From NCBI GenBank assembly GCA_001805965.1, contig MHHG01000052.1:13930-77929 (forward strand): a stretch of 64,000 nt of DNA, read 5' to 3'. The stretch is from Omnitrophica WOR_2 bacterium RIFOXYA2_FULL_38_17 (GTDB lineage: Bacteria; Omnitrophota; Gorgyraeia; Zapsychrales; Zapsychraceae). Below, in pieces: positions 26,050 through 63,210 of the stretch. The position numbers were made by a program, and so were the translations under genes. Below the pieces are notes generated by a model, which saw nothing but the letters and a program-made list of their open reading frames with translations, made no database searches and was not told where the DNA came from. Position 1 is the first letter of the stretch. Each line of letters begins with the position of its first letter.

Positions 26050-26053
26050 TGAT

Positions 26054-41599: not shown

Positions 41600-41620
41600 A
41601 ATTGAATCTAAATAATATTA

Positions 41621-42508
41621 TTGGTGTTAAAAGTGACAAATCAAATGAAGTGTTATTTATGTGAGGGAACAAAGCTCGTTGAGAGAGAAGGTAGTGTTCG
41701 AGATATGTCAGGATTGGGAATTCTTGAGTGTGCATCTTGTGGATTAGTTTTCTTGTCGTCGTTTGATCATATCAACGAAGGATTTTATGAAGAGTCAGGG
41801 ATGCATGGTGACGATGATCTAGATATTCAATCTTGGCTAAATGAGACAGAGTGGGATGATGAGCGTCGTTTTCAGTATTTTAAAGCGGAATTGCAAAATC
41901 GAAAGTTATTAGATTTTGGGTGTGGGGCAGGAGGTTTTCTTCTAAAAGCTCGGGATTTATCTGAACAGGCATATGGTGTTGAATCTGAAAGCCGATTAAA
42001 AAGTCACTTTCAGAATAATGGTTTGAGTGTTTTTCAAGAATTATCTGAAATTCCAAAAGATGTTCAAGATGATGGGTTTGATATTATAACTATGTTTCAT
42101 GTTTTAGAACATATACCAAAACCGAAATCACTGTTGATTGAGTTGAGCAAATTATTAAAAGACGATAGTCAGATTATTGTTGAGGTTCCAAATGCGAGCG
42201 ATGCATTATTGACCTTGTTTAAAAATAAGCCATTTTCAAATTTTACTTATTGGAGCTGCCATTTGTTTTTATATACCACTGAAACATTACAAATGTTATT
42301 TGATCAAGTAAACTTTAAAGTGAATTATATTAAACAAATTCAAAGGTATCCACTGTCAAATCATTTATATTGGTTGGCAAAGGGAAAGCCTGGTGGACAT
42401 CAGAAGTGGAAGTTTCTCGATTCTCCGGAACTTAATGCTATTTACGAAAAGCAACTTGGGTCTTTTGGTGGGTGTGATACGATTTTGGCGAGTATTACTA
42501 GAAATTAA
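41621..42508 (+). CDS. Class I SAM methyltransferase with N-terminal Zn-ribbon
   Basis: CYLCEG...CASCG ribbon, then LLDFGCGAGGF motif I. Confidence 0.75.
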   Translation: MVLKVTNQMKCYLCEGTKLVEREGSVRDMSGLGILECASCGLVFLSSFDHINEGFYEESGMHGDDDLDIQSWLNETEWDDERRFQYFKAELQNRKLLDFGCGAGGFLLKARDLSEQAYGVESESRLKSHFQNNGLSVFQELSEIPKDVQDDGFDIITMFHVLEHIPKPKSLLIELSKLLKDDSQIIVEVPNASDALLTLFKNKPFSNFTYWSCHLFLYTTETLQMLFDQVNFKVNYIKQIQRYPLSNHLYWLAKGKPGGHQKWKFLDSPELNAIYEKQLGSFGGCDTILASITRN

Positions 42509-42565
42509 GAGTATTAAGAAGAAATTGAAAGTATTCTATTGTAATGATTGTCTGGAGAGTATTAA

Positions 42566-43957: not shown

Positions 43958-43971
43958 GGATGGTATTTTAA

Positions 43972-45861
43972 ATGAATTTGATTTTAATAGAAAATGACCA
44001 AAGCATAGATAAAGTCATATCTCATCCAGAATATGTTCAAGGAAGAGACGTGATTTTATGTTTTTGTTATCTTTCATATTGGTATTTAAAGAATCAGAGC
44101 GACAAACATATTTGCGTATTTAATGATGACCTTTTTTTTAAAGAGGATTATGATTGTATGCATTCTGAGACAGAAAGATTTGCTTCGACTTGGTTCTACC
44201 AAGATGGTGCGGATGTAACATTGTTTAATAATGTCTCTTTTGGCGATTTGATAAAACCAGCTATTGGAAGAACATATATGTCTCATATTTTAGTTAAATA
44301 TGGTGAAGCTATTCGTAAATCTGTAGAAAAGTGGGGCAAAATCAATTGTATTTATTATGATTTTACAAATAAAAGTAATTACTTTAACTATCTTCAAAAC
44401 GATGGTGGTAGATTTTTCAATAAAAAAAGACTTGTTGAATGTGTTGCTAAACAATTAAATATAAAGACTTCAGAAATTATAACAGATAAGGTGTTGCCGA
44501 CTCCATATCTTCATGAGAAAGTTTGCATAGATTTTAACGGGAAGCTCCAAGAAAACAAAAAAGATCTACGTGGCACGATATGTTATTTTGCAAAATTGAT
44601 TCATAATGCTATAAGCCGTTTTCTATCTTTGTTTAATGGTACATTTAATGCAGGGAAAGTTTACTTTTTTAACTATTACAACATTAATAGTTTTGTACAA
44701 CATCACGCCAAAGATCTTGTGATCCCAAATTTTGGATTAAAGGATCATTTGAAAACGCTTTTCTCAGGATTGACATTTGCAGACATTGATGATGAGAAAT
44801 ATGAATTAGATAAGCCTGAGAATAGTTATCTGAAATTTATTCGGGATAGATTGTTGGATGAGGGTGTTGTTCGATCTGATTGTGACTTTGTATTCAATGG
44901 TATTGATTATTCTTCGATTTATGAGCCTGCTTTAAAGAACTTTGTCGAATGTCTTATTCCTTTTTATTTAGCGCATATGGTTAAGGTTAGGAATTTTCTC
45001 AAGAGGATGAGAGTTGCAAAGTTAGTTGTGAATGATATCACAGACGAGAAAAATGGTGTTATTATTGCAGCATGTCGACAATCCAATGTAAAAGTTTATT
45101 TTGTTGATCATGGAATCAAAGCATGGAGATCGGCGTATCCTTTACCATTTGTTGCTCCTGATGTTTATTTTGAAGCAAGTACTAGACCCTTTTACGAAAT
45201 GCCATTATTGCCCGAACCGCTTGGAACGCCTATTATGGATCAGCATGCTGAAAGACCAAGAAAGAAGGTTTCTAGGATAAAAAAAATTCTTTTTTTGACT
45301 TTTGCTGATAGTCATTATGCAAGATTAGATAGGTTAGCTTATAGGGGTAAATATTATGCAGAAATATTTTCTGTATTCAAAGGCTTGTCAGAGATGGGTA
45401 TGGAACTTTATTATAGGACTCATAGTGAAAATCAAGCTTATCATGATTATATGTTTGATCTTTTTGATGTAGATAGGACAACTTTTAAATTAAAGCATGG
45501 AGGTAGATTTTGTGATGTTATACGAGAGATGGATTTAATGGTGTGTAATTTTACTACATGTTTTTTTGAAGCTCAAGCTTCAGGTATTCCTACGATATTT
45601 CTTGAGCCGCATGTTATTATGGATGCTCTTCAGATGCCTTTGAGTGGAGAGCATATGAAAGATGTTATTCGTGTGTCAACTGGCAAAGATTTGATGAATA
45701 TTGTTAAACGTAATAAGGATAATCCTGCTGAATTAAATAAGTTTCTGGATGCTTTCATTGAAACAAATGGTGTCCCTTATATTGGAAATCTAGATGGAAA
45801 GGCAAGTGAGAGAATTTCTGATTATATATTTAATGATAAAGTAAGGAATCTTTCTGAATAA
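43972..45861 (+). CDS. Large uncharacterized protein with GT-B/TagF-like C-terminal half (putative glycosyl- or glycerophospho-transferase)
   Basis: 629 aa; C-terminal KKILFLTFADSHY...YYRTHSEN...ASGIPTIFLEPH resembles the donor-binding half of TagF/KpsS-like GT-B enzymes (HP motif). Confidence 0.4.
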   Translation: MNLILIENDQSIDKVISHPEYVQGRDVILCFCYLSYWYLKNQSDKHICVFNDDLFFKEDYDCMHSETERFASTWFYQDGADVTLFNNVSFGDLIKPAIGRTYMSHILVKYGEAIRKSVEKWGKINCIYYDFTNKSNYFNYLQNDGGRFFNKKRLVECVAKQLNIKTSEIITDKVLPTPYLHEKVCIDFNGKLQENKKDLRGTICYFAKLIHNAISRFLSLFNGTFNAGKVYFFNYYNINSFVQHHAKDLVIPNFGLKDHLKTLFSGLTFADIDDEKYELDKPENSYLKFIRDRLLDEGVVRSDCDFVFNGIDYSSIYEPALKNFVECLIPFYLAHMVKVRNFLKRMRVAKLVVNDITDEKNGVIIAACRQSNVKVYFVDHGIKAWRSAYPLPFVAPDVYFEASTRPFYEMPLLPEPLGTPIMDQHAERPRKKVSRIKKILFLTFADSHYARLDRLAYRGKYYAEIFSVFKGLSEMGMELYYRTHSENQAYHDYMFDLFDVDRTTFKLKHGGRFCDVIREMDLMVCNFTTCFFEAQASGIPTIFLEPHVIMDALQMPLSGEHMKDVIRVSTGKDLMNIVKRNKDNPAELNKFLDAFIETNGVPYIGNLDGKASERISDYIFNDKVRNLSE

Positions 45862-45903
45862 AATCTAATATTGAATTTTGTATCAAACAAGAAATAACTT
45901 ATT

Positions 45904-46899
45904 ATGGAAAACAAAAAAACAGTTTTTGAAGAAAAAAGATCAAAAAGAACATTTGCGGATTGGTCAAATTTAAAGCCTCCTTTTCCAAAAGAAGTATTTA
46001 TGGATGTTACAAGTTATTGTAATTATGAATGCATTTTTTGTAGCAATAAAAAATTATCAGATAAATGTCATCTAGATAAAGAGTTAGCATTTAGGATAAT
46101 TGATGAGTGTTCAGAGAATGGTACGGAAGATATGGCAATGTATGCGACAGGAGAACCTTTTATGCGTAATGATTTGCATGAATTTGTTGCATATGCCAAA
46201 AGTAAGAATATTAAGTATGTTTTTTTAGGAACAAATGGGTCTTTAGCAACGGCTCAAAGGGCTAAGGCGGTACTTGATGCTGGTTTGGATAGCATAAAGT
46301 TTTCTATTAATGCAGGCACGAGAGAATCTTATCACAAAGTTCATGGTCGTGATGATTTTGAAAAAGTGATTGAAAATGTGAAATGGATTCACAACTACAG
46401 AAAAGAATCAGGATTAAAATTTGGAATGTATGTGAGCATGGTGCCTACCCATTTAACCGAAGGAGAAATTCCTGTTTTAGAAAAAGTAATTGGTCCTTAT
46501 GTTGACTTAATAAATAATAGAGGATGTTCAAATCAAGGTGGCAATATGTATGAGAACAATTTCAATGCCAAGGTAGATAAGGATAATTTGTTGGGGAGCT
46601 TAACTACAGAAAAACACTGCGGGAAATGTCCCGATTTATTTCAGCGAACGGTTGTTACCCCACAGGGATATTTGTCTGCTTGTGTAGTTGATTATAGAAA
46701 TTATTTATGTGTTGCCGACTTGCATGAAGTTACGATTAAAGAGGCTTGGCATGATGATGTTTATGTTGATTTGCGAAGAAAGCATGTTGAAGGGAAACTG
46801 TCTAGATTGATGTGTAACAATTGCCTCAATAATGTTAATGAGCAAGCGGAGCCGCTTGTGGAAAAATATTCCTTGTCTTATAAAAACGAAAAGAAATAA
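45904..46899 (+). CDS. Radical SAM/SPASM-domain enzyme
   Basis: MDVTSYCNYECIFCSN CxxxCxxC; C-terminal CGKCP...CVVD...CNNC auxiliary-cluster cysteines. Confidence 0.75.
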   Translation: MENKKTVFEEKRSKRTFADWSNLKPPFPKEVFMDVTSYCNYECIFCSNKKLSDKCHLDKELAFRIIDECSENGTEDMAMYATGEPFMRNDLHEFVAYAKSKNIKYVFLGTNGSLATAQRAKAVLDAGLDSIKFSINAGTRESYHKVHGRDDFEKVIENVKWIHNYRKESGLKFGMYVSMVPTHLTEGEIPVLEKVIGPYVDLINNRGCSNQGGNMYENNFNAKVDKDNLLGSLTTEKHCGKCPDLFQRTVVTPQGYLSACVVDYRNYLCVADLHEVTIKEAWHDDVYVDLRRKHVEGKLSRLMCNNCLNNVNEQAEPLVEKYSLSYKNEKK

Positions 46900-46900
46900 C

Positions 46901-47992
46901 ATGAATAAACAATTTAAAAAGAATTTACTTGAGTTAAAGCGTTATCGGACTTCAACTGGTCGAGATATTGAAGGAGGTCTCTGTCTTGACAGAAATGAAA
47001 GAGTTTCTAAATTTGCAAAGAAAATTATGGATGAAGCCCTCGATAGCATTACAAGCTCTGTATTGAGTTGTTATCCAGACCCAGGTGAATTATACAAAGC
47101 CTTGTCGTCTTTTTTGTCTGTTTCCCAAAATTGTATATATCTTACAAATGGAATTACAGAAGGAATCCGGGTAGCTTTTGAGACTCTGACAAGCCCGGGA
47201 GATGAGGTTATTATTGTTGAGCCTACGTATCCTATGTATAGGGTTTATTCAGATATTTATCAAACAAAATTTATTCCGATCAAATTTACACAAGAGTTGC
47301 ACCTAGAATATGAAAAAATTGAATCTATGATCACGAAGAAGACAGCTTTTGTTTGCATTCCTAATCCTAATTTACCTATTGAGAGCTACTTATCATTAAA
47401 GATCATTAAGGATATTGCCAAGAAATGTCAAAAGCATGATGTAATGTTTTTTGTTGATGAAGCTTATGCGTTTCTAGGTGGGGAAAGTGCGATTTCATTG
47501 ATTGATGATTTTGAAAATTTGGTTGTTTTTCAAACCATGTCAAAGGCGTTTGGCTTAGCTGGTGTGCGTCTGGGATGGATGGTCTCAAACCAAAAGAATA
47601 TTGATTATTTTTCTAAAACACGAGCATTGGTTGAATCTAATGGTGTGACCTTGGTAGTGGCCAAATATATGATAGAAAATATCGATATTTTGAAAGAATA
47701 TGTTTCTGATCTCAAACAAGGATTGACATATTTACGCCGAGAGTTAACTACGCTAGGAATTAAATCTTTTGGTGGAGATTATACTAATTCTACACTTTTA
47801 TTTATGGATAATGAAGATGATGCGAATAGTGCTTTGGAGTATTTGCGAGAAAGAAAAATCTATGTTCGTGCCTCTTTCAAGGAGCCTTTTAATAATTGTT
47901 TGAGAATTACTTTAGGTCCAAGGGACAGTATGAAGAAGTTTTTGAAATATTTTAATGAGTGGTTGCAAAATAATAGGATGGAGACTGAATGA
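46901..47992 (+). CDS. Class I/II PLP aminotransferase (HisC/CobD-like)
   Basis: FQTMSKAFGLAGVRLGWMV (SKxxGxxGxRxG PLP-Lys motif). Start set to the ATG at 46901 to remove overlap with the upstream gene. Confidence 0.75.
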   Translation: MNKQFKKNLLELKRYRTSTGRDIEGGLCLDRNERVSKFAKKIMDEALDSITSSVLSCYPDPGELYKALSSFLSVSQNCIYLTNGITEGIRVAFETLTSPGDEVIIVEPTYPMYRVYSDIYQTKFIPIKFTQELHLEYEKIESMITKKTAFVCIPNPNLPIESYLSLKIIKDIAKKCQKHDVMFFVDEAYAFLGGESAISLIDDFENLVVFQTMSKAFGLAGVRLGWMVSNQKNIDYFSKTRALVESNGVTLVVAKYMIENIDILKEYVSDLKQGLTYLRRELTTLGIKSFGGDYTNSTLLFMDNEDDANSALEYLRERKIYVRASFKEPFNNCLRITLGPRDSMKKFLKYFNEWLQNNRMETE

Positions 47993-48984
47993 ATAAATTG
48001 ACATGTCCAAGTTGTAAATCTGCTGATTGTCGTTTTCTTGATGATTATCGATATTTTAAGTCTGAAGACCGCAAATATCTTGGGGATATGAAAGTTTATC
48101 AGTGTCAGAGTTGTAGTCTTGGGTTCAACAGCCCGATGCCCGATAAGGCGGCATTAGATCTTTATTTTAAAATTGTTTATCGTCAATCGAATCGACCGCA
48201 TTTTAAAAAAGATCCACGAAAAGCAGAAATTTTGTTATGGCAGAAAGCTCAGTATGCCTACATGTCTCAATTTTGTGATTTTGATAAACTTCAATCGATT
48301 GCAGATTATGGCGCAGGATACGGCATGTTATTGCGAGAAATAAAACTTCACCATCCTGATATTAAAATGTCAGCATATGATCCTGATGTGCAAAGTCTTG
48401 AGTATTTGAAGTCTTTTGATATTGAAACATATGATCTTTTTAAGTGTTTGGATTCTGCAGAGAGTAAGAATAAATATGATTTAATTATTGCTTCGGGCAG
48501 TATTATGTATGATTCTAATCCACACTGCTTCTTTGATTTTGCAAATAAAAATTTATCAGAAAAGGGAAAGGTTTTTTTAGAAGTGCCCAATCATGTGTTT
48601 TCTGATGATTCGTATACAAAAAGACCATATGATGGTCCAGTAATGTTTTATTTTTCGATAGATTCGTTAAAAAAACTTGTGGATGTTAATAATTTGGAAT
48701 TGGAACACATAACAACTGCAAGCACGGAACTTGATGATGCATTACAATATAGATTGAATCAGTATAATGCTTTTAATCAAAAAGAAGAATCCTTTATTGC
48801 TAAGATTATGAAAGGTTTTAAATCAAAATTGAAGATGATGATACCTAAACGCATTAAAAAAGCAATAAAAGCTTTACTTTATGATGAAGACTTGGATATT
48901 GCTAAGAAATTGGCACCATTTGAGTATGGTGGGAAGCGATGGACAATACGATGTATTATTACAAGGAATTTGAAAAGTGAATAA
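47989..48984 (+). CDS. Class I SAM methyltransferase with N-terminal Zn-ribbon (paralog of the 41621 gene)
   Basis: CPSCKS...CQSCSLGF ribbon; DYGAGYGMLL motif I. Confidence 0.65.
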   Translation: MNKLTCPSCKSADCRFLDDYRYFKSEDRKYLGDMKVYQCQSCSLGFNSPMPDKAALDLYFKIVYRQSNRPHFKKDPRKAEILLWQKAQYAYMSQFCDFDKLQSIADYGAGYGMLLREIKLHHPDIKMSAYDPDVQSLEYLKSFDIETYDLFKCLDSAESKNKYDLIIASGSIMYDSNPHCFFDFANKNLSEKGKVFLEVPNHVFSDDSYTKRPYDGPVMFYFSIDSLKKLVDVNNLELEHITTASTELDDALQYRLNQYNAFNQKEESFIAKIMKGFKSKLKMMIPKRIKKAIKALLYDEDLDIAKKLAPFEYGGKRWTIRCIITRNLKSE

Positions 48985-51166
48985 AGATATAAAAAAAGAA
49001 ATACTGTGTACGATTGGGCCTGCATCAAGGAATGAAAAGGTTATTAAGCGTCTTGAAGATTTGGGAGTTACATTGTTTAGAATAAATTTGTCTCACACTA
49101 GTATTGATGATTTGGCCGAAGTTATTGAATTTATTCAAAAGCTTACAACAGTCCCAATCTGTTTGGACACAGAGGGTGCTCAAGTACGAACAGGCAAATT
49201 AAAAGAAACCTCTCTTAATGTTAACATAGGACAGTTGATACAGATTCCGTTTGAGCAGATTGTTGGTGATGAAACAAAATTTAATTTTTATCCAGCTGAT
49301 ATAGCAAAGAAATGTCAGGTAGGTGATATTATTAGTATTGATTTTAACTCTGTATTAATTCAGGTTATTGAACAAGGAGAGAAGGCGTTAACTGCGCGTG
49401 TTATAACAGGTGGAAAGCTTGGACAAAATAAGGCTGTTAGTATTGACCGTGAAATTGCTATGACAGCATTAACAGAAAAGGATCTAAACAGTATAGAAAT
49501 TGGTTTAAAGATGGGGATTAATCATTTTGCCCTTTCTTTTGCAAATAAGGGTGAAGATGTGAAGTTGATTAGATCTCTTGTTGGGAAGAATAAGTTTATA
49601 ATTTCAAAGATTGAATCCTGTCAAGGGGTAAACAATTTGGAGGCGATAGCGAAGCAATCGGATGCGATCCTTATAGACCGGGGGGATTTATCCCGTCAAA
49701 TTCCTATTGAACAGGTGCCAAGAGTTCAGAAGGAGATAGGACAAAGGATAAAGCATTTTGAAACAAAATTTTATATTGCTACGAATTTGCTTGAAACTAT
49801 GATTGAATCTTCTGTTCCAACTCGGGCAGAAGTAAATGATGTTTTTAATTCTTTAGTTGATGGGGTTGACGGTCTTGTTTTAGCAGCAGAGACTGCTATC
49901 GGAAAATATCCAATTGAAAGTGCAGTTATGATTTCGAAGATGATTGCTGAGTATGGAGAATTTAAGAAGGGACGTAGCTTTAGTTCAGAGGAATTACACC
50001 GAAAAGGATCTTTGTTTTTGGTTGAACCTCATGGTGGAGTTTTGGTTGAGCGCTTTTCTAAAGATAACTTAGGCAAAATTCAGGAGATGCGTAAATTAAT
50101 CGTTAGCCATGAAGATATTATAAATGCAGAGCAAATTGCAGTAGGATCATTTTCCCCTTTGGAGGGTTTTATGGGTAAGGAGGAGCTGGAAAGTGTTTTA
50201 AAGGATATGCGCCTTCCTGGTGGATTAGTATGGCCGCTACCGATTCTACTTCAAATTAAAGATGAAAAAGCAAAAGATTTAAAAGTAGGTAAAAGTTTTG
50301 CTTTATGTGTAGAGGGTGAAGAAGATGTTTATGCGGTTTTGCATTTGGATGAAATATTTAATTATGATTTAGATAAAATCGCAACTGAAGTATTTCATAC
50401 GACTGAGGAAGCTCACCCTGGGGTTAGAAAGTTAATGCACAATGGGAATTGTTTTTTAGGTGGGAAAATTGATTTGGTAAAAAGATTTCCTTCTTCTTTA
50501 AAATATTTTGAGTTGACCCCTAAGCAGACTAGGTTGATTTTTGAGAATAAGGGTTGGAGTCGGATCGTTGGATTTCATACGCGAAATGTTGTACATAGGG
50601 CTCATGAATTTATTCAATTGGAGGCGTTTGAAAGGTTACATTGTGATGGCCTTTTTATTCATCCTTTGGTGGGGCCTAAAAAGAGTGGTGATTTTAATCC
50701 AGATATTATTTGTAAGTGTTATGACTTAATGGTTAGCCAGTTTTATCCAAAAGGAAAAGTTCTTTTGGGTGCATTTCAAAATTATCCTCGTTATTCTGGG
50801 CCAAGGGAAGCTGTTTTTACAGCTATTTGCCGAAAGAATTTTGGATGTTCTCATTTTATTGTTGGGCGGGATCATTCTGGCGTAGGTAATTATTATCAAA
50901 AAGATGGCGCGCATAAATTGTTCGATGAGCTTGGTTACATAGGTATTAAGCCTATATATTTTAATGAGGTTCATTATTGTTTGAAGTGTGATCAATATGT
51001 TGAGAGTTGTTCTCATTCAGAAAGTAATATTCTTCAAATAAGTGGTACCCAATGTCGGGAAATGTTTAAAAAAAGTAAAATTCCTCCAGCATGGTTTATG
51101 AGGGAAGAAATCTCTAGAATGATTATAAGTGATATTAATGATGGTAAGGAAGTATTTGTGGAATGA
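48977..51166 (+). CDS. Fusion protein: N-terminal pyruvate-kinase barrel domain joined to C-terminal sulfate adenylyltransferase (ATP sulfurylase)
   Basis: N-terminal ~340 aa carries PK signatures (ILCTIGPAS, LFRINLSH, ICLDTEGAQVRTG, IISKIESCQGVNNLEAI, ILIDRGDLS, LVLAAETAIGKYP). The C-terminus carries ATP-sulfurylase signatures (GFHTRNVVHRAHEFIQ, HPLVGPKKSGD, GRDHSGVG). GTG start. Confidence 0.8.
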   Translation: MNKDIKKEILCTIGPASRNEKVIKRLEDLGVTLFRINLSHTSIDDLAEVIEFIQKLTTVPICLDTEGAQVRTGKLKETSLNVNIGQLIQIPFEQIVGDETKFNFYPADIAKKCQVGDIISIDFNSVLIQVIEQGEKALTARVITGGKLGQNKAVSIDREIAMTALTEKDLNSIEIGLKMGINHFALSFANKGEDVKLIRSLVGKNKFIISKIESCQGVNNLEAIAKQSDAILIDRGDLSRQIPIEQVPRVQKEIGQRIKHFETKFYIATNLLETMIESSVPTRAEVNDVFNSLVDGVDGLVLAAETAIGKYPIESAVMISKMIAEYGEFKKGRSFSSEELHRKGSLFLVEPHGGVLVERFSKDNLGKIQEMRKLIVSHEDIINAEQIAVGSFSPLEGFMGKEELESVLKDMRLPGGLVWPLPILLQIKDEKAKDLKVGKSFALCVEGEEDVYAVLHLDEIFNYDLDKIATEVFHTTEEAHPGVRKLMHNGNCFLGGKIDLVKRFPSSLKYFELTPKQTRLIFENKGWSRIVGFHTRNVVHRAHEFIQLEAFERLHCDGLFIHPLVGPKKSGDFNPDIICKCYDLMVSQFYPKGKVLLGAFQNYPRYSGPREAVFTAICRKNFGCSHFIVGRDHSGVGNYYQKDGAHKLFDELGYIGIKPIYFNEVHYCLKCDQYVESCSHSESNILQISGTQCREMFKKSKIPPAWFMREEISRMIISDINDGKEVFVE

Positions 51167-51702
51167 AAAGCGCGTTGATATTTTGGTTTAGTGGATTGTC
51201 TGGTTCGGGAAAAACAACAATAGCCCAAACAGTAAAAGTATTACTTGAGAAAGAAGGGCGTTCAGTTTTAATTTTAGATGGCGATGATGTAAGGGAGAGA
51301 TTCCATAAAAATTTGGGGTTTAACGTAGAAGATATAAAAGAGAATAATCGTTTGATCTCTGAGCTGTGTCACGAAAATAAGGATTTGTTTGATATAATTT
51401 TGGTTCCGATCATTTCTCCTTATAAAGAATCCAGGGAAAAGGCAAGAGAGTTATTAAATAATAAATTTTATGAAGTTTATGTTTCGGCGTCGCTTAAAAC
51501 AGTTATTGCTCGTGATACTAAAGGATTATATGCAAAAGCAGCTTCTGGATTGATAGATAATTTGATTGGTTACTCGAAGAATACAATATATGAAGAACCT
51601 AAGGATGCTGATCTTGTTATTAATTCAAATTATCAGAGTGTTGAGCAGTCAGTTAAAATGCTATACGAATTTGTTATTAAACAATTAAAGATTTTAAGTT
51701 GA
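51163..51702 (+). CDS. cysC: Adenylyl-sulfate (APS) kinase
   Basis: IFWFSGLSGSGKTTIA P-loop in the APS-kinase context, 179 aa, translationally coupled to the sulfurylase. Confidence 0.88.
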   Translation: MKSALIFWFSGLSGSGKTTIAQTVKVLLEKEGRSVLILDGDDVRERFHKNLGFNVEDIKENNRLISELCHENKDLFDIILVPIISPYKESREKARELLNNKFYEVYVSASLKTVIARDTKGLYAKAASGLIDNLIGYSKNTIYEEPKDADLVINSNYQSVEQSVKMLYEFVIKQLKILS

Positions 51703-52883
51703 AAACACTCGGTATATTTATGAAAGACTATAAAAAGTTAATGGATGTTTTGCTGCAGTTGCCAGCTTGTTCCCTCATTACAACAGGTAGAACTGGTTCT
51801 GATTTCTTACAAAGTTTATTTGATTCCCATGAACAAGTGCTTACTTATAATGGGGACTTTTTGTTTCATCAGTTTTGGAAAGAATCACTTTGTGTATCAT
51901 CTGGAAAATTTGATTTGAATGATCTTATTGCAGAATTTATTGGCAAGCATATTGAAACGCTTAAATCAAAATATGATTTGTTTGAACGAAAACATGAACT
52001 GGGAGAAGAAGGTGATCAAAGTATTGATATTGATTTAGAATTGTTTAGAGTACACATTGTTGGTTTGATTAGTGATAGAGAAGTTAATTCAAAGAATATT
52101 TTATTAGCGGTTAATGGTGCATATGCTTTGTGTTTAGGACAGGATTTACTTAATAAAAAGTTATTCTTACATCATAATCATCATTCTTCTAGCCTAAAAA
52201 GTTATTTAGTTGATTTTCCTGATAGCAAGATTATTTGTATGACGCGAGATCCTAGGGCTAATTTTGTGTCAGGTATTACACATTGGGCAAAGCATGACAA
52301 AGATAGTGATAGAGGAGCACATCTTTATTTTTATATTGAGAGGATATTGCTTGATGCACAATTTTTAAATGAATTTAAGAATGATTCAAGGGTGATCAAA
52401 ATCGAAGAGCTTGGAGAGAAAATAGTTTTGGAGAAATTATGTGATTGGTTAGGCGTTGAGTATAGTGAAACTCTTGAAGAATCAACTTGGGGAGGAATGC
52501 TTTGGAAGGGAGATAAGCTCTCAACGAGAAAGAAGGAAGGGCGAGGGTTTTCTGCAAATATTTTAAAAAATAATTGGAATGAAAAATTAAGTTTTATTGA
52601 TAAGTATATTTTTAATTTTATTACGAATAAAAGGTTAAAATATTATGGATATCAAGTGCGTCCTATTAGAAAAATAGATTATTTTTTGGTTCCAATTCTT
52701 ATATTCTTGCCGTTAAGGTTTGAATTGAGATATTTTAAACTGTCATATTTGTTAAATAATAGGACTCTTTTTCTTAGTAATTTATATTATTTTGTGAAGA
52801 GGATTGGCCTTTTCTTGAAATATTACATTCGAGAAATTAAATCTCACGATTACTTAAGTAAAAAATTAAGATTAAATAATTGA
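51699..52883 (+). CDS. Putative PAPS-dependent sulfotransferase
   Basis: N-terminal ITTGRTGSDFLQSLF resembles the 5'-phosphosulfate-binding loop of sulfotransferases; genomic context (sat-cysC immediately upstream). Confidence 0.45.
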   Translation: MKTLGIFMKDYKKLMDVLLQLPACSLITTGRTGSDFLQSLFDSHEQVLTYNGDFLFHQFWKESLCVSSGKFDLNDLIAEFIGKHIETLKSKYDLFERKHELGEEGDQSIDIDLELFRVHIVGLISDREVNSKNILLAVNGAYALCLGQDLLNKKLFLHHNHHSSSLKSYLVDFPDSKIICMTRDPRANFVSGITHWAKHDKDSDRGAHLYFYIERILLDAQFLNEFKNDSRVIKIEELGEKIVLEKLCDWLGVEYSETLEESTWGGMLWKGDKLSTRKKEGRGFSANILKNNWNEKLSFIDKYIFNFITNKRLKYYGYQVRPIRKIDYFLVPILIFLPLRFELRYFKLSYLLNNRTLFLSNLYYFVKRIGLFLKYYIREIKSHDYLSKKLRLNN

Positions 52884-52907
52884 AGTCTTTCTAGGAGGGA
52901 ATAGAGC

Positions 52908-53819
52908 GTGAAAGAAGTTTTTATATCTACATCAACTTTTGCCAAGTATTCAAAAGAACCTATCGATTTGTTAGAAAGAGAGGGTTATAAAGTTAGTCTC
53001 AACCCTACCGGACAAAAAATGACGACTGATGATATTATGAAATACGGCAAGGATGCAGTGGGCCTGATCGCTGGAACAGAAAAATTAAATGCGGATGTGT
53101 TAAAAGCGCTTCCTAATCTTAAAGTTATTTCAAGATGTGGTGTTGGTTTGGATAATGTTGATTTGAATGCTGCTGAAGACTTAAATATTTGGGTTGTTAA
53201 TACACCTGACGGGCCAACACTTGCTGTTGCGGAATTGACTATAGGATTAATATTAAGCCTTATAAGAAATGTTGTGTGGATGGATAAAGACATTCGAAAG
53301 GGAATTTGGAAAAAGAGAATGGGTAACTTGCTTTTTAATAAGCGAGTTGGGGTGATTGGGTGTGGAAGAATTGGTCGAAAGGTTGTTGAATTATTGAAAG
53401 TGTTTAACTGTGAGATTTCTTATTCTGATCCTTATGTCGATTGTGAAATCCTTGGGCTGAAGAAAATGGATTTAGAAGAATTATTGAAATGGTCAGATCT
53501 TGTAACAATACATTCCTCTGGAAGCAGTGTCTTAATTAATGAGAAGCAACTGGATTTAATGAAAAAAGGAGCATGGATCGTAAGTGTGGCACGTGGTGGT
53601 GTTGTCGATCAAAGAGCCCTTTATGAATCATTGCGAAGCGGATACTTGGGTGGTGCGGCTTTAGATGTTTTTGATGAAGAACCATATAGTGGTATGTTGA
53701 AGCACTTAGATAATGTTATCTTGACGCCTCATGTTGGGTCTTATGCAAAAGAGGCGAGAGTAAAAATGGAAATAGAATCAGCAGTAAATTTAATTAATAA
53801 GCTTAAAGACTGTTTATAA
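52908..53819 (+). CDS. D-isomer-specific 2-hydroxyacid dehydrogenase (glycerate/phosphoglycerate-dehydrogenase-like)
   Basis: GVIGCGRIGRKV NAD-binding motif, catalytic R/E/H region (SVARGGVVD...TPHVGS). Confidence 0.8.
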   Translation: MKEVFISTSTFAKYSKEPIDLLEREGYKVSLNPTGQKMTTDDIMKYGKDAVGLIAGTEKLNADVLKALPNLKVISRCGVGLDNVDLNAAEDLNIWVVNTPDGPTLAVAELTIGLILSLIRNVVWMDKDIRKGIWKKRMGNLLFNKRVGVIGCGRIGRKVVELLKVFNCEISYSDPYVDCEILGLKKMDLEELLKWSDLVTIHSSGSSVLINEKQLDLMKKGAWIVSVARGGVVDQRALYESLRSGYLGGAALDVFDEEPYSGMLKHLDNVILTPHVGSYAKEARVKMEIESAVNLINKLKDCL

Positions 53820-53834
53820 TAGGAGGTCAAATAT

Positions 53835-54275
53835 ATGACTGATAATAAAATCAGTGATAAAGATGTAAGTCATGTATTAAAAGATGATGGAGTTCATACG
53901 GTTTTGATAGGAGAAGAGTATGAAAATATTTCATGTACGGATCTTGAAACAATTAAAAAAAGATGTGGCACACCACCATGGGCTGTAAGGATTGTTTATA
54001 ATGAATTATTTGGCGGAGTTTTAATATGTCAAAAGCCAGGAGAAGGAAATAGGCTTCATTATCATCCTGATGCGGATGAATGTTGGGTTATTATGGAAGG
54101 CCAATGGGAATGGTATATTGAGGGTGAAGGAACAAAAAAAGTTAAGGAAAAAGATATTGTTGTTGTAAAAAAAGGCACGGATCATAAGATTACTTGTATA
54201 GGAGATGTTCCGGGGATACGCTTTGCTGTAACCGCTCCTGATGTAAATCATGTTTATAGTTCAAAAGGAGAATAG
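53835..54275 (+). CDS. Cupin-domain protein
   Basis: 146-aa ORF with a His-containing conserved-barrel-like motif (HYHPDADECWVIMEG). Confidence 0.5.
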   Translation: MTDNKISDKDVSHVLKDDGVHTVLIGEEYENISCTDLETIKKRCGTPPWAVRIVYNELFGGVLICQKPGEGNRLHYHPDADECWVIMEGQWEWYIEGEGTKKVKEKDIVVVKKGTDHKITCIGDVPGIRFAVTAPDVNHVYSSKGE

Positions 54276-54279
54276 AAAA

Positions 54280-54999
54280 ATGAATATTGATTTTTCTGGA
54301 AAAGTAGCACTTATTGTTGGAGGTACAAGTGGTATAGGGCTTGACTTAGCAAAGCAATTAAGTTCTAGTGGTGCGAAAACTTTTGTTGCTTCTCGCAATG
54401 ACCATGGATCACTGGATAGTATTGGGTTTATTAAGTGTGATGTGAGAGACGAAAAACAGGTTAAAGGCCTTGTTGGTGAAATTATTTCAAAAGAAACCCA
54501 TATCGATATTTTAGTTAATTCAATGGCCATAAATCAATGCAAGCCAATTGAAGAGATATCGCTGGATGATTGGAAAGATGTTGTTGATACTAATATAACT
54601 GGGATATTCTTGCTTTGTAAAGAAGTTATTCCACACATGAAAAAAAGAAAGTACGGAAAGATTGTTAATATTTCTTCTATTGCAGGAAGGCACAGAAGTC
54701 CAGTGAGTGGAGTTCATTATGTAGCTACTAAGGCTGCGATAATTGGGTTTACAAGGCAGTTGGCTTTTGAGGCAGCTCCTTTTGGCATTAATGTTAATGT
54801 GCATTGTCCAAGCCAAACATTGACTCCAATGTTAAAAAGTTCCATGAACAAGGAACAAATAGAGGCTTTGGAGGCAATAATACCTTTGAAGCGGTTGGCT
54901 ACGGTTGAAGAACAAGCTTATGCGGTATTATTTTTGTGTTCAGATATGTCATCATATATGAGTGGTGCTGTTTTGGATGTTAATGGAGGGCAAATATAA
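54280..54999 (+). CDS. SDR-family oxidoreductase (FabG-like)
   Basis: GKVALIVGGTSGIGL and YVATKAAIIGFTRQLA (YxxxK). Start set to the ATG at 54280, preceded by an AAAAGGAGA RBS. Confidence 0.8.
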   Translation: MNIDFSGKVALIVGGTSGIGLDLAKQLSSSGAKTFVASRNDHGSLDSIGFIKCDVRDEKQVKGLVGEIISKETHIDILVNSMAINQCKPIEEISLDDWKDVVDTNITGIFLLCKEVIPHMKKRKYGKIVNISSIAGRHRSPVSGVHYVATKAAIIGFTRQLAFEAAPFGINVNVHCPSQTLTPMLKSSMNKEQIEALEAIIPLKRLATVEEQAYAVLFLCSDMSSYMSGAVLDVNGGQI

Positions 55000-55763
55000 T
55001 GGGTAATAATAAATTTGCTCCACCAGTCGCTTTGTTGATGGGGAGGAAAGGGAGTCAAGGTCTACCGGGAAAAAATTGTATGATATTGTTGGGTAAAAAG
55101 ATAATGCATTATCCTTTGATGGCAGCTAAAACATCAAAATATGTAAAAAACATATTTGTTTCTACTGATGATGACGAAATAGCTGAAGAATCAAAAATTT
55201 TTGGAGCAGAACATATTTTGAGGCCACCTGAATTATGCACAAATAAAGCTCTTTTTGAAGATGCATTGTTACACGGTTTTCATGAAGTGACCAAAAGATT
55301 AGGAAAGATCCCGGAATTTTTAGTTGCTTTAATGTGTAATGCTCCAACGGTCAATGCTCAATTAATTGATGAAGCAATTGAGAAATTAAGAGCAGATGAT
55401 GAAGCTGACTCAGCAGTAACAGTATCAGTGTTCAATATGTGGTCACCAATGAGGGCGAGAAAATTGAATGATCAAGGATATTTGGATCCTTTTATTCCAC
55501 TGGAATTTTGGGGTGATTCATCAAAAGTTAATTGTGATAGAGATTCTCAAGGGAATGTTTATTATGCTGATATGAGTCATTCAGTATGTAAGCCAAGGTG
55601 TTTTGATGATGATATGAAAGATGGTCTTCTTCCACAAAAATGGATGGGGAAGAAAATTCTTCCTGTGAGAAATCCATTTGGTTGTGATATTGATTATGAT
55701 TGGCAAATACCGATGGTTGAATTTTGGCTTGAAAAGTATAGTGATTTTGAAAAAAACAAATAA
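54999..55763 (+). CDS. CMP-sugar cytidylyltransferase-family protein (third paralog)
   Basis: VALLMGRKGSQGLPGKNCMIL N-terminal signature. Confidence 0.7.
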   Translation: MGNNKFAPPVALLMGRKGSQGLPGKNCMILLGKKIMHYPLMAAKTSKYVKNIFVSTDDDEIAEESKIFGAEHILRPPELCTNKALFEDALLHGFHEVTKRLGKIPEFLVALMCNAPTVNAQLIDEAIEKLRADDEADSAVTVSVFNMWSPMRARKLNDQGYLDPFIPLEFWGDSSKVNCDRDSQGNVYYADMSHSVCKPRCFDDDMKDGLLPQKWMGKKILPVRNPFGCDIDYDWQIPMVEFWLEKYSDFEKNK

Positions 55764-55779
55764 TAGAGAGGGATGTTTT

Positions 55780-56424
55780 TTGATTAAAGCAATAATATTT
55801 GATTTTGATGGAGTTATTTGTGAGTCTGCGAATATTAAAACGGAAGCTTTTGGTGAATTGTTTTCTCAATGGCCGGATGTTTCTAATAAAGCGCTTGAAT
55901 ATCATCTTGTAAATACTGGTGTTACTCGATTTCAAAAGTTTCGTTATCTTTATGAAGAATTGTTAAGGCTGGAATATACTGATGAGATTGGAGAGAAATT
56001 AAGTGATGATTTTAGTGCAATTTGTTTTGAAAGAGTTAAGCAAGCGCCGTTTGTAAAAGGAGCACAAGAGTTTTTAGAAGAATATTTTGAGCAATACAAA
56101 TTATTTGTTGCATCTGCTTCACCTCTAGGCGAATTGAAAGAAACTATTAGAGTGAAGAATTTAGAGAAGTATTTTGGCGATATTTATGGGCATCCTAGTT
56201 TAAAAAAAGATGTGGTTAAAGGTATTATGCAGAGTCGCGGGTATAAAAAGTCGGAAGTTGTTTTTGTAGGAGACGGAGAGAGTGATTTAAAAGCAGCAAA
56301 ATGCAATGATGTTTTTTTTGTCTTGAGAAAAACATCAGAAAATGATTATTTGTTTGAGCGATCTAAATACAAAATTGATGACTTAAGTGCATTGAGTGAT
56401 TTAATTTTAAAATTGCCAAATTAA
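55780..56424 (+). CDS. HAD-superfamily hydrolase (phosphatase / beta-PGM-like)
   Basis: AIIFDFDGVI motif I (DxDG), motif IV GDGESD. TTG start at 55780 after an AGAGAGGGA RBS, which removes the overlap with the upstream gene. Confidence 0.7.
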   Translation: MIKAIIFDFDGVICESANIKTEAFGELFSQWPDVSNKALEYHLVNTGVTRFQKFRYLYEELLRLEYTDEIGEKLSDDFSAICFERVKQAPFVKGAQEFLEEYFEQYKLFVASASPLGELKETIRVKNLEKYFGDIYGHPSLKKDVVKGIMQSRGYKKSEVVFVGDGESDLKAAKCNDVFFVLRKTSENDYLFERSKYKIDDLSALSDLILKLPN

Positions 56425-56441
56425 GAAGATCTGGAGGAAAT

Positions 56442-57341
56442 ATGTCAAAAAAAGTTATGGTTTTTGGTGGCTCAGGATTTTTGGGAAGCCATGTAGCTGA
56501 TTGTTTAGTAGAGAAAGGTTATGATGTGTCGATCTATGATATTAAAAAATCTTCTTATTTGACTGAAGGTCAAAAGATGATAGTTGGCGATGTAACAGAT
56601 TATGATAAAGTGATCGAGGTGCTTAAGGGGTTTGATATTGTTTATAATTTTTCTGGAATAGCAGATATTCAGGAGGCTAGTGAAAACCCACTGAATGTTG
56701 TTAAGTTAAATATTTTGGGGAATACGAATATTCTTGAAGCTTGTCGTATTAACAAAGTCAAACGGTTTATTTTTGCAAGTAGCCTTTATGTTTATGGCAA
56801 TCTGGGGTCATTTTATAGAAGCAGCAAGCAGGCTTGTGAATTAATAATTGAGGATTATCAAAAGAAATTTGGATTAGATTTTATTATCTTGCGATATGGT
56901 TCTTTGTATGGTGACAGGGCGACGGGTTTTAATCCATTAAGAGATTTTATTGAACAAGCAATTAAAAAGGGAAAGATTATAAGAAAAGGTAATGGAGAAG
57001 AGATTAGGGAATATATTAATGTTGTCGATGCTGCAAGAAGTAGTGTTGAAGTAATAGAACGGGGTTTTAAAAATGAATATATGATGATATCAGGTAATCA
57101 ATCTATGAAAATTAAAGATATGTTGGAAATGATTAAAGAAATGATGAAGGGTAAAATAAAGATTGAATATAATACACCTGCCCTGGCTGACGAACACTAT
57201 GGAATAACTCCGTATTATTTTCAGCCTAAAGTGGCAAAAAAATATGTGTTGGATAGTTATTATGACCTAGGAGAAGGAATCCTGAGCCTTATTTATAAAA
57301 CACATGAAGAGTTGTTGAATGAAAGAGAGAATGGATATTAA
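56442..57341 (+). CDS. NAD-dependent sugar epimerase/dehydratase
   Basis: VMVFGGSGFLGSHV Rossmann motif; YxxxK (YRSSKQACE). Confidence 0.78.
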   Translation: MSKKVMVFGGSGFLGSHVADCLVEKGYDVSIYDIKKSSYLTEGQKMIVGDVTDYDKVIEVLKGFDIVYNFSGIADIQEASENPLNVVKLNILGNTNILEACRINKVKRFIFASSLYVYGNLGSFYRSSKQACELIIEDYQKKFGLDFIILRYGSLYGDRATGFNPLRDFIEQAIKKGKIIRKGNGEEIREYINVVDAARSSVEVIERGFKNEYMMISGNQSMKIKDMLEMIKEMMKGKIKIEYNTPALADEHYGITPYYFQPKVAKKYVLDSYYDLGEGILSLIYKTHEELLNERENGY

Positions 57342-58849: not shown

Positions 58850-58855
58850 AATTTT

Positions 58856-60616
58856 ATGATTGTAATAGATTATCTTTTTTTGGTTAATAAGTCTTCTAAG
58901 GAGTCATTGTATCAAAAAAAATGGTTTTATTTGGGGACCGATTATAAGAAGATCAAAGTGTTGCAAAATAGTTTTTTGAAAGCTGATGGTTATGTGGATG
59001 TATTCCATGAGTTAAAATCAATACAAGAGGAGTATAAGCAAGAATTCATTGATTTTATAGGTTCTTTATCAGTCAAATATGATTCCTTTCAATGGTGGGC
59101 TTCTTCTGTGTCTGAAAAAGGGATGTTTGAAGGCCAGCCGTTGTTTATGGAGTTTTGCTATTTTAAACTTATCAAGCAGTACATGAATCAAGATGTGTTG
59201 ATAGTTCTAGATAATTTAACATTATTGGAAGCAGTTCAGCAGAATTATAATGTAAAAACGTATATTTATCAGAAAAGCAGTTATATTGCTGAAATCATTG
59301 GATATTTTAAAAGTAGAGCAAAGTTTTTTATAATGCACTTTTTCAGAAAGAAAGCCCCAGATTGTTATATTTCAGGAAAAAAATATATTGGCTTGATTTC
59401 TTGGGTTGATGATCGAAATACTGAATCTGGTGATTTTGAAGATAGTTATTTTGGAAAATTGTTTTCAAGTAAAAAAAACAATGATGAATTTTTGTATTTA
59501 CCCAATTTCATATTTAGAAAATATAAAGATGAAGCATTCGCAGCCTTAAGAAAGGAATCCATTAATTATTTTAGTTTATTCGATAATTTTACAAAGCTGG
59601 ATGTCCTTAAAGCGCTTTTTTTATCAATGGGTTTTAATTTTGACAAAAATGAAAAGTTTATTTTTGATGGCGAAAATGTAAGTTTATTTATAAAGCAAAA
59701 ATTAAAAGATGATTGGTTGGCTAATAGGTTATCGAAATATTATTTGTTGTATTTTGCAGTAAAATGCTTAAAACAAAAAGGTGTTTTTCTTGATAAAGTA
59801 GTTTATTTGTTTGAAAATCAGCCGTGGGAAAAAATACTTTGTTATTCTTTTAAAGAATTCTATCCCGAAGTTGAATTGATTGGATTTATGCATTCTGTTA
59901 CATTGCCATATTTGCTCAGTTTGTATCCTTCTCAGAACGAAAGAGAAATAATGCCTCAGCCTGATAAAATATTTACAACAGGTCAATTGTTTTCAGAAGA
60001 GTTGAGAAAATATTATGACAAAACAAAAATTGAAGATGCGTGTGCTTTTAGATACGAATATTGTTTTGAGAATAAAGTTATAAGTAAGAATAAAAAAAAT
60101 GTAATATTAGTCGCGTTGGCGTCTGATGTTGAAAAAAAAGCTGAGATGATTGATAAAATTTATTATGCATATAAAGATAAGAAAGAATACCGTGTTTTAA
60201 TAAAGGACCATCCGGCGAATCCTGCAAATCTTGAATCAATATTTAATAATGAATTGCCCGATAATTTTGAAATAGTTAATCAGCCGATATCTGAATTGTT
60301 GAGCAGTTCATCGCTTGTAATCAATGCAGATTCTACAGTGGGGTTTGAAGCCTTGAAATTTCGAGTACCTGTTATTGAAATATTGTTTAATGTAAACTCA
60401 AATATGAGTCCAATAGATTATTTTCAAGGAAAAAAATATAAATGTCTTACGCCTAATGAAATTTTAGATACAACAAACACAATTCTAAACATGCCTCATG
60501 ACGAAAAAAATAAATACTTCCTGGAAGTTGATAGTTTTCTTGAGAGTTGTTTTAATCCAATCAAGGATGAATATATAGCGAAGATTTGTAATAAAAGGCA
60601 AAAGGAGTATTTTTAA
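58856..60616 (+). CDS. Large uncharacterized protein with GT-B-like C-terminal half (third member of the ~600-aa unknown trio)
   Basis: 586 aa; C-terminal NVILVALASD...LIKDHPANP...INADSTVGFEAL resembles a TagF/KpsS-like nucleotide-sugar-binding half. Confidence 0.4.
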   Translation: MIVIDYLFLVNKSSKESLYQKKWFYLGTDYKKIKVLQNSFLKADGYVDVFHELKSIQEEYKQEFIDFIGSLSVKYDSFQWWASSVSEKGMFEGQPLFMEFCYFKLIKQYMNQDVLIVLDNLTLLEAVQQNYNVKTYIYQKSSYIAEIIGYFKSRAKFFIMHFFRKKAPDCYISGKKYIGLISWVDDRNTESGDFEDSYFGKLFSSKKNNDEFLYLPNFIFRKYKDEAFAALRKESINYFSLFDNFTKLDVLKALFLSMGFNFDKNEKFIFDGENVSLFIKQKLKDDWLANRLSKYYLLYFAVKCLKQKGVFLDKVVYLFENQPWEKILCYSFKEFYPEVELIGFMHSVTLPYLLSLYPSQNEREIMPQPDKIFTTGQLFSEELRKYYDKTKIEDACAFRYEYCFENKVISKNKKNVILVALASDVEKKAEMIDKIYYAYKDKKEYRVLIKDHPANPANLESIFNNELPDNFEIVNQPISELLSSSSLVINADSTVGFEALKFRVPVIEILFNVNSNMSPIDYFQGKKYKCLTPNEILDTTNTILNMPHDEKNKYFLEVDSFLESCFNPIKDEYIAKICNKRQKEYF

Positions 60617-60622
60617 TCAATT

Positions 60623-63189: not shown

Positions 63190-63210
63190 GAAGGATTTTG
63201 GGAGATTAAA

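Follow-up and report, generated by a model that had tools for sequence, protein, structure and literature searches.

A pyruvate kinase–ATP sulfurylase fusion beside a TPST-like sulfotransferase suggests a dedicated sulfation cassette in a nonulosonic-acid gene island of an uncultivated Omnitrophota bacterium

The cassette described here lies at positions 48977–52883 of a 64-kb stretch of DNA (contig MHHG01000052.1; hereafter the window, to which all coordinates refer) from Omnitrophica WOR_2 bacterium RIFOXYA2_FULL_38_17, an uncultivated groundwater bacterium of the Omnitrophota. It encodes a fusion of a pyruvate kinase (PK) barrel to an ATP sulfurylase, an adenosine 5′-phosphosulfate (APS) kinase, and a predicted sulfotransferase dependent on 3′-phosphoadenosine 5′-phosphosulfate (PAPS). 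Taken together, these genes probably provide a self-contained and dedicated PAPS supply, assisted by phosphoenolpyruvate (PEP), that would serve to O-sulfate a sugar of the nonulosonic-acid type or the side chain of that sugar; within this reading, the identity of the acceptor and the role of the PK barrel are what we infer. A reading of the letters alone (the sequence-only reading) had proposed three such genes here, with PAPS made for sulfation of a glycan or a nonulosonate derivative rather than for assimilation. All three are real genes on the forward strand, as judged from Pfam and NCBIfam matches and a fold model, and the proposed destination of the PAPS is now supported by fold, gene context, and synteny in many phyla.

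48977..51166, + strand: fusion of PK barrel, PUA_2 domain and ATP sulfurylase, 729 residues (Pfam, NCBIfam and PDB sequence matches)
51163..51702, + strand: APS kinase (CysC), 179 residues (PF01583, E = 4.8e-45; TIGR00455, score 166.1 against a cut-off of 138.7)
51720..52883, + strand: predicted TPST-like PAPS-dependent sulfotransferase of an uncharacterised family, 387–394 residues (fold model, motifs and marginal Pfam matches)

That the sulfurylase is part of a fusion had been recognised beforehand, with its partner left unnamed. This partner is a PK barrel (PF00224, residues 6–315, E = 2.7e-68, 230.9 bits) aligned over profile positions 3–327 of 328, and it is followed by a PUA_2 domain (PF14306, residues 350–502, E = 5.4e-43) and an ATP-sulfurylase domain (PF01747, residues 511–717, E = 1.6e-74). 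Sequence matches in the PDB divide in the same way, with ATP sulfurylases aligned over residues ~344–718 and pyruvate kinases (7oo1 and 5wrp) over residues 2–330. The sulfurylase part scores above the relevant NCBIfam cut-offs (NF003166, 409.5 > 387; TIGR00339, 339.5 > 322.95) and contains both the HxxH and GRDH motifs (HTRNVVHRAH at residues 534–543 and GRDHSGVG at 630–637). To judge by these motifs, it is of the homomeric Sat type and would convert sulfate and ATP to APS and pyrophosphate.

The PK part displays FRINLSH (residues 34–40), LDTEGAQVR (63–71), SKIES (210–214), DRGDLS (234–239), ATNLLE (268–273), and AAETA (303–307). When 25 fusions were aligned with 3 stand-alone copies, residues R35, N37, H40, D64, R71, K152, K211, E213, D237, T269, and E305 were invariant in all 28 sequences; the barrel has the catalytic lysine, the glutamate and aspartate Mg ligands, the proton-donor threonine, and the Arg/Asn/Ser/His phosphate and cation site. 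We infer that the barrel is a working PEP:ADP phosphotransferase. An inactive piece or scaffold is disfavoured, as the catalytic residues are all invariant, stand-alone copies included. Separately, residues 63–71 (window 49163–49189) follow a family motif DTEGAQ(V/I)R, with E66, A68, and Q69 nearly invariant, where canonical pyruvate kinases have DTKGPEIR; the position that governs K+ dependence in muscle PK is a glutamine in this family, and the change may reflect a different handling of cation or nucleotide.

The domain arrangement of the fusion is not restricted to the window. At least 120 homologues of the 729-residue protein were found, and all those listed are PK–PUA_2–Sat proteins with 51–62% identity, while one homologue of 879 residues (P0196) is a quadruple PK–PUA–Sat–CysC fusion. 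These homologues are named differently between resources ('pyruvate kinase' at JGI, 'sulfate adenylyltransferase' at NCBI), and the NCBI protein from the same 90%-identity cluster as the window fusion (OGX23564.1) was deposited as a 384-residue 'sulfate adenylyltransferase', so that the PK half is not in the public protein record. The domain assignment given here corrects this annotation of the 384-residue sulfurylase of the deposited metagenome-assembled genome (MAG).

The next gene encodes an APS kinase with a P-loop (GLSGSGKTT, residues 11–19) and an LDGD motif (residues 38–41), i.e., the motifs expected for the conversion of APS and ATP to PAPS and ADP. The stop codon of the fusion gene and the start codon of the APS kinase gene overlap in an ATGA at 51163–51166, and the fusion gene is itself overlapped by 8 nucleotides by an upstream methyltransferase gene. 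All three cassette genes had been read as translationally coupled: start and stop codons do overlap for the fusion and the APS kinase, but probably not for the sulfotransferase. The reading frame of the latter is open from a TTG at 51699, but the gene most likely starts at the ATG at 51720, 17 nucleotides past the APS kinase stop codon, the position at which a near-identical metagenomic copy and other homologues begin. Genes around the cassette form a long same-strand run with a G+C content of ~0.33 and tiny or overlapping gaps. A promoter and terminator scan of positions 41000–60700 gave counts not above those of shuffled sequence, a result that would fit one long operon but is uninformative.

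The third protein had been called sulfotransferase-like on account of a PAPS loop, and a fold check agrees. An AlphaFold model built on the family alignment (pLDDT 88.9, pTM 0.88) was compared with the PDB using Foldseek, and the best 26 matches were all PAPS sulfotransferases, including TPST1/2, the OLS and CurM domains, SULT2A1, Stf9, and others (probability up to 1.00, target-normalised TM-score up to 0.57). In an alignment of 32 homologues, the segments TTGRTG(T/S)D and TRDPRANFVS were invariant or nearly so. The first corresponds to the 5′-phosphosulfate-binding motif (TTGRTGSD, residues 28–35, nucleotides 51780–51803; G30, R31, G33, and D35 invariant), and the second to the 3′-phosphate-binding motif (TRDPRANFVS, residues 182–191, nucleotides 52242–52271; T182, R183, D184, P185, R186, and S191 invariant). 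A profile of the family weakly matched only human TPST1/2 in the PDB (E = 0.007), with the two motifs paired with PRSGTT and RDGRASVHS of TPST1, respectively. The model and the alignment thus indicate a protein with a PAPS-sulfotransferase fold and both PAPS-binding motifs, intact; given the Foldseek matches and the aligned motifs, a generic P-loop NTPase was rejected.

This sulfotransferase belongs to a sizeable and largely unnamed family. We found 238 relatives among 5.8 billion proteins (listed ones at ~44–57% identity), nearly all of them unnamed, with a few labelled 'sulfotransferase' in Omnitrophota MAGs. A profile search of 1.84 billion representatives of 50%-identity clusters returned 284 matches at E ≤ 1e-30 and 3,494 at E ≤ 1e-3. 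A scan of the window protein against NCBIfam gave no match. Beyond the sulfotransferase fold, the family has a conserved, helical, and partly hydrophobic C-terminal extension (residues ~320–385, window ~52656–52853), with P338, E342, and R368 invariant and no counterpart in solved sulfotransferases. Its maximal Kyte–Doolittle mean over 19 residues is 1.33, under the value for a confident transmembrane segment, and the extension might represent a membrane-peripheral anchor or an oligomerisation element. The near-identical metagenomic copy (locus L001, 10001–11191) carries a 9-residue tandem duplication (NILKNNWNE twice) not found in the window, a strain-level length variation in the loop after residue 286.

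Next, we evaluated gene content around this sulfotransferase family across 74 non-redundant loci from at least nine phyla, obtained from a one-genome-per-species scan, exact-protein look-ups, and a metagenome scan, with sulfotransferases ≥85% identical collapsed. The one-genome-per-species scan alone yielded 15 loci, from Omnitrophota, Dehalococcoidia, Anaerolineales, Nitrospinaceae, Planctomycetia, Myxococcota, Bdellovibrio, Acidobacteria, and several Pseudomonadota. For 26 of the 74 loci, at least 5 kb was available on either side of the sulfotransferase ("well-flanked" loci). In raw counts, these included CysC in 23, a PK barrel in 18, an ATP sulfurylase in 16, and an ulosonic-acid marker (any of NeuB, HpcH/HpaI aldolase, or the CMP-transferase family CTP_transf_3) in 25. 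Where PK and Sat were both found, they formed a single reading frame, PK then Sat, in 21 non-redundant loci, and separate adjacent genes in the reverse order, Sat then PK, in 3. Another 5–6 loci displayed PK, CysC, and sulfotransferase with no Sat detected in the available locus sequence, and no locus with at least 3 kb of flank had Sat without PK. The occurrence of both fused and reverse-order adjacent pairs, along with the lack of Sat without PK, argues that this association is functional and not one inherited accident.

These comparisons also bear on whether the Sat–CysC pair may instead represent general assimilatory sulfate activation, located by chance in a glycan island and used opportunistically by the sulfotransferase. 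Among known structures, the best match of the sulfurylase is the enzyme from Methanothermococcus thermolithotrophicus (8a8d, E = 9.3e-92), which presumably works in assimilation. However, Pfam scans of essentially all window reading frames of at least 120 residues and of the 10 kb past the 3′ end detected no cysH (PAPS/APS reductase), no sulfite reductase (sir, cysIJ), and no cysteine synthase (cysK-type) gene, in line with the sequence-only reading, which had placed the cassette far from any cysteine-biosynthesis context. An assimilatory cysDNC/cysH/cysIJ operon is thereby ruled out over this span, and the 10 kb past the 3′ end encodes epimerases, a nucleotidyltransferase–HAD protein, glycosyltransferases, a deacetylase, and an aminotransferase. 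In 22 of the first 23 loci compared, no more than 3 kb separates CysC from the sulfotransferase. In both loci retrieved with the fusion as the seed (L024 and L025), the PK–Sat gene adjoins a sulfotransferase and CMP-sugar (CMP-transferase) genes, along with CysC; the L024 sulfotransferase is from a different Pfam family (Sulfotransfer_1), and L025 adds a CysQ-like PAP phosphatase. Finally, proteobacterial sister loci have kept NeuB, CysC, and the sulfotransferase, with Sat and PK absent, as expected if APS is borrowed there from housekeeping CysDN. We thus consider a mainly assimilatory role quite improbable.

A second possibility is that the sulfotransferase acts on protein tyrosines, as TPST and RaxST do, or on a lipid, and not on a sugar. 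Human TPST1 and TPST2 are its best structural and profile matches, and a position at the membrane could result from its C-terminal helices, which are conserved and partly hydrophobic. The genomic setting points elsewhere: nearly all well-flanked loci (25/26) carry ulosonic-acid genes, cassette members occur fused to a HAD phosphatase of sugar-pathway type and to a radical S-adenosylmethionine (SAM) enzyme, and neither a RaxX-like peptide gene nor a secretion system was apparent next to the sulfotransferase gene, although no systematic search for these was made. Such an acceptor would therefore be very unlikely, and a nonulosonic-acid-type sugar remains the reading that we favour.

The closest surroundings of the cassette are consistent with this reading. 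Its immediate flanks had been described as glycan methyltransferase and dehydrogenase genes, which Pfam matches substantiate as a Methyltransf_23 gene upstream and a D-2-hydroxyacid dehydrogenase gene downstream, and the neighbouring genes most relevant here are as follows.

45904–46899, + strand: radical SAM/SPASM enzyme
46901–47992, + strand: HisC/CobD-like pyridoxal phosphate (PLP) enzyme
47989–48984, + strand: Methyltransf_23 methyltransferase (Pfam)
52908..53819, + strand: D-isomer 2-hydroxyacid dehydrogenase, PGDH/glyoxylate-reductase-like (Pfam; best NCBIfam matches under cut-off)
54999..55763, + strand: CMP-ulosonic-acid-type cytidylyltransferase (CTP_transf_3), the third gene of its kind in the window and from a family present in 17 of the 26 well-flanked loci
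55741..56424, + strand: HAD-IA phosphatase (Pfam), with an orthologue fused N-terminally to the sulfotransferase in other organisms
58856..60616, + strand: 586-residue protein with a predicted GT-B fold (no Pfam match; weak TIGR04326 match; model pLDDT 85.1)

The first three of these genes also flank the cassette as a trio in L018 and L026. Foldseek matches of the 58856–60616 model to GT-B enzymes (E ~5e-8) make this protein a candidate transferase for the activated sugar. Other frequent neighbours among the 26 well-flanked loci include an HpcH aldolase (13), a 299-residue epimerase/dehydratase (13), the D-2-hydroxyacid dehydrogenase (12), the HAD-IA phosphatase (11), a ~590-residue protein with no Pfam match (11), a MocA oxidoreductase (11), NeuB (10), and Methyltransf_23 (10). 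On a larger scale, the window encodes glycan biosynthesis from ~13 kb to its end. This includes a pseudaminic-acid set (PseB/PseC/PseG-H/PseI/PseF-like) with Polysacc_synt_2 at 29356, DegT at 30343, GT28_C+GNAT at 31494, PseI at 32975 (TIGR03586, 495.7 > 340), and CTP_transf_3 at 36880, as well as a second NeuB gene, four CTP_transf_3 cytidylyltransferases in total (among them 23142 on the minus strand, 36880, and 54999), a HisH/HisF-type pair, SAM methyltransferases, FkbH, MBOAT, and heptose-type genes. On the best reading, the cassette sits within a conserved sub-cluster (~45904–60616) for making or modifying a CMP-activated ulosonic-acid-type sugar, inside a pseudaminic-acid island.

Two gene fusions in other organisms appear to tie sulfation to this sugar sub-cluster. 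One is a HAD_2::sulfotransferase protein of 620 residues (P0284), whose HAD part is 40% identical to the product of window 55741–56424; the other, in L026, is an APS kinase fused to a radical SAM/SPASM protein (522 residues) similar to that of window 45904–46899. Along with the HisC/CobD-like PLP enzyme, these fusions suggest an acceptor of nonulosonic-acid type, perhaps first dephosphorylated. In L026/L027 (10001–13428), the two types of fusion stand side by side, and on their flanks lie two CTP_transf_3 genes, a gene for a 2-hydroxyacid dehydrogenase, and a set of PEP-mutase/phosphonate genes.

The same neighbours may be taken to suggest that the sulfate is a transient leaving group on a biosynthetic intermediate, in a CurM/OLS-like manner, with a later enzyme (the HisC/CobD-like PLP enzyme, a radical SAM enzyme, or a dehydratase) eliminating or replacing it and the final glycan left unsulfated. 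The best structural matches include OLS and CurM domains (4gox, E = 3.5e-4; 4gbm, E = 7.5e-4), the conserved neighbours include a HisC/CobD-type PLP enzyme, i.e., of a type that uses phosphate-ester substrates, and radical SAM/SPASM enzymes, and it is to such a radical SAM protein that the APS kinase is fused in L026. TPSTs, which make stable sulfate esters, nevertheless score better (E ~2e-5), no CurM-type thioesterase or decarboxylase partner is present, and a dedicated, PEP-boosted PAPS supply looks costly for a purely catalytic trick, albeit not impossible. On balance, we regard a leaving-group role as unlikely, if less so than the assimilatory or the protein and lipid alternatives, and a stable O-sulfate as the probable outcome.

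In the mechanism that we propose, PAPS made by the fusion protein and CysC would be passed to the adjacent sulfotransferase and not to assimilation. In its simplest role, the PK barrel would spend PEP on turning the ADP that leaves APS kinase back into ATP, so that ATP stays high and ADP stays low around the enzyme and PAPS synthesis becomes PEP-driven. Sulfation would take place in the cytoplasm, on a hydroxyl of a nonulosonic-acid-type sugar or of the acyl side chain of such a sugar. This hydroxyl may be one that the neighbouring HAD phosphatase has just released from a phosphate ester; such an unmasking step would explain the HAD::sulfotransferase fusions of some organisms. The pyruvate released by PK may also feed the HpcH aldolase encoded in many sister loci. 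PK as a pyruvate source for this aldolase and nothing else was considered and rejected, and we retain pyruvate supply only as a possible side benefit: all HpcH loci had PK among the first 23, but the link weakened in the larger sample, in which two HpcH loci had no PK (HpcH absent/present, 6/2 without PK and 7/11 with PK). A more specific, joint version of this proposal is possible but tentative, and we would not assume it. In this version, the cassette would be a natural PEP-driven PAPS synthase, with ADP recycled and pyruvate possibly passed to HpcH, feeding a hitherto unrecognised bacterial modification, in which a widespread and uncharacterised TPST-like family would O-sulfate ulosonic acids of the pseudaminic/legionaminic or a related type, maybe as a phosphate-to-sulfate swap with the HAD enzyme.

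Several observations weigh against the interpretation of the cassette as a PEP-assisted supply for sugar sulfation. On the sulfotransferase side, the Pfam matches are just over cut-off (Sulfotransfer_3, 28.5 vs 27 bits; Sulfotransfer_1, 23.9 vs 22), the Foldseek TM-scores are modest (0.4–0.57), and the nearest relatives by structure act on tyrosines of proteins (TPST) or install sulfate as a leaving group (CurM, OLS). On the PK side, the protein has no PK_C domain (the C-terminal allosteric and tetramerisation domain), with PUA_2–Sat taking its place after the barrel, and because this domain is absent it falls short of the full-length NCBIfam models (TIGR01064, 279.1 < 306.4; NF004491, 283.7 < 432); the PK half is accordingly classed by its sequence as a PK-type barrel and not as a canonical full-length pyruvate kinase. 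The need for a fused PK is not obvious either, since cells are normally ATP-rich, and the Sat/CysC pair might also serve assimilation. Lastly, the co-occurrence counts across loci are uncorrected for phylogenetic relatedness.

Dedicated PAPS modules encoded beside a sulfotransferase are known from nodPQ–nodH, raxPQ–raxST, and the mycobacterial cysDNC–stf0. As in Nod-factor sulfation (nodPQ–nodH) and in Sinorhizobium LpsS, the cassette combines a PAPS module of the pathway's own with a predicted carbohydrate sulfotransferase, apart from assimilatory cys genes, and as in Xanthomonas raxPQ–raxST the module accompanies its transferase. However, NodPQ is a GTPase-coupled CysD/CysN heterodimer fused to APS kinase, while the window encodes a homomeric Sat fused to a PK barrel, and no CysD- or CysN-type protein (PAPS_reduct, GTP_EFTU) was found among window reading frames of at least 120 residues. 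The nodPQ–nodH context is also that of a lipo-chitooligosaccharide, and not of a nonulosonic acid with another, uncharacterised sulfotransferase family. The cassette thus appears akin to the nodPQ/raxPQ module in logic without being a member. Overall, four features set it apart from known modules: Sat in place of CysDN, a fused or adjacent PK barrel, an uncharacterised sulfotransferase family, and a constant nonulosonic/ulosonic-acid setting.

Individual components can be compared in a similar way. Human TPST1/2 are the closest structural and profile relatives of the window sulfotransferase, and their PAPS motifs align, but their identity to it is only 14–17%, the window family has an extra conserved C-terminal region of ~70 residues, and TPST and RaxST sulfate peptide tyrosines whereas the conserved neighbours of the window enzyme are sugar-pathway genes. 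Bifunctional PAPS synthases (Aquifex 2gks, which the window Sat matches with E = 6.3e-63, and fungal and animal PAPSS) likewise couple sulfate-activation steps physically, but these Sat–CysC proteins are not known to include the PK domain found in the window fusion. In-vitro PAPS regeneration cocktails combine ATP sulfurylase and APS kinase with pyruvate kinase and PEP, with PK recycling ADP to drive PAPS synthesis; whereas this is a laboratory design, the cassette would combine these activities in nature, by way of a gene fusion. No description of a PK–sulfurylase fusion, a bacterial nonulosonic-acid sulfotransferase, a sulfated pseudaminic or legionaminic acid, or a sulfotransferase of flagellin glycosylation was found in the full-text literature searched, which covers few subscription journals. 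For the reaction itself, a report on vertebrate WSCD1/2 describes PAPS-dependent O-sulfation of sialic acid, a nonulosonic acid (PMC9304399). These are eukaryotic Golgi enzymes acting on finished glycans, and what they would share with the window enzyme is the type of reaction.

Beyond the cassette, several features of the island and of the sister loci bear on the type of glycan involved. The window encodes four B12-binding radical SAM and two radical SAM/SPASM proteins (19146–20747, 42566–43957, 57341–58849, 60623–62185, 40799–41599, and 45904–46899) beside at least six SAM methyltransferases, a density which suggests extensive C-/O-methylation or rearrangement of sugars. At 24296–26824, the HisH/HisF-like amidotransferase–cyclase pair adjoins a ~380-residue protein with no Pfam match, and this arrangement, which we take to resemble the acetamidino-forming genes of nonulosonic-acid pathways, recurs near the cassette in other Omnitrophota (L022, 2944–5482; L024, 2042–8853). 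An FkbH-like glyceryl-loading enzyme is encoded near an MBOAT acyltransferase (13185–17668), and L023 (6441–13616) has, in order, FkbH, a stand-alone PK, CysC, the sulfotransferase, an AlgX-like protein, and MBOAT; these neighbours hint at O-acylation, possibly with glyceryl groups, of the same glycan.

A further module recurs with the cassette elsewhere and combines an HpcH/HpaI aldolase, CTP_transf_3, a MocA oxidoreductase, Methyltransf_23, and a ~600-residue GT-B-like protein (L017, 11255–21185; L019, 7070–17973; L022, 11195–19021; L023, 857–5032; L025, 12844–19110), sometimes joined by SIS_2, TAL_FSA, HAD, and SDR genes. Its genes resemble those of a non-NeuB, pyruvate-aldolase route that would lead to a CMP-activated 2-keto-3-deoxy acid, and the window does not include this aldolase. 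At 62200–63771 and past the 3′ end (also in L020, 10648–13454), a GHMP kinase, a SIS_2 isomerase, an epimerase, a nucleotidyltransferase–HAD fusion, and a PRK-family kinase together look like a nucleotide-activated heptose pathway. Three proteins of ~600 residues with no Pfam family are encoded in the window (34011–35924, 43972–45861, and 58856–60616), and a fourth group (585–624 residues) adjoins CysC in proteobacterial loci L009, L010, and L012–L014. These do not form one family, as BLASTP found no similarity of the 58856 protein to those at 34011 and 43972 or to the proteobacterial group (C15).

The sulfotransferase family described here ranges across Omnitrophota, Chloroflexota, Nitrospinota, Planctomycetota, Myxococcota, Bdellovibrionota, Acidobacteriota, and Pseudomonadota, and the proposed function predicts a new sugar modification, namely a sulfated bacterial nonulosonic acid. 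If confirmed, the PK–sulfurylase fusion would represent a natural design for PEP-assisted PAPS synthesis, which could help biocatalytic sulfation, where PAPS supply is the bottleneck. Environmental biofilm matrices are described as rich in both sulfated and nonulosonic-acid-bearing glycoconjugates, and one account of such material refers to the sulfotransferases behind these glycoconjugates as unknown (PMC10483923). Should the reading hold, the cassette would provide a concrete and widespread candidate gene set for these sulfated, nonulosonic-acid-rich biofilm glycoconjugates.

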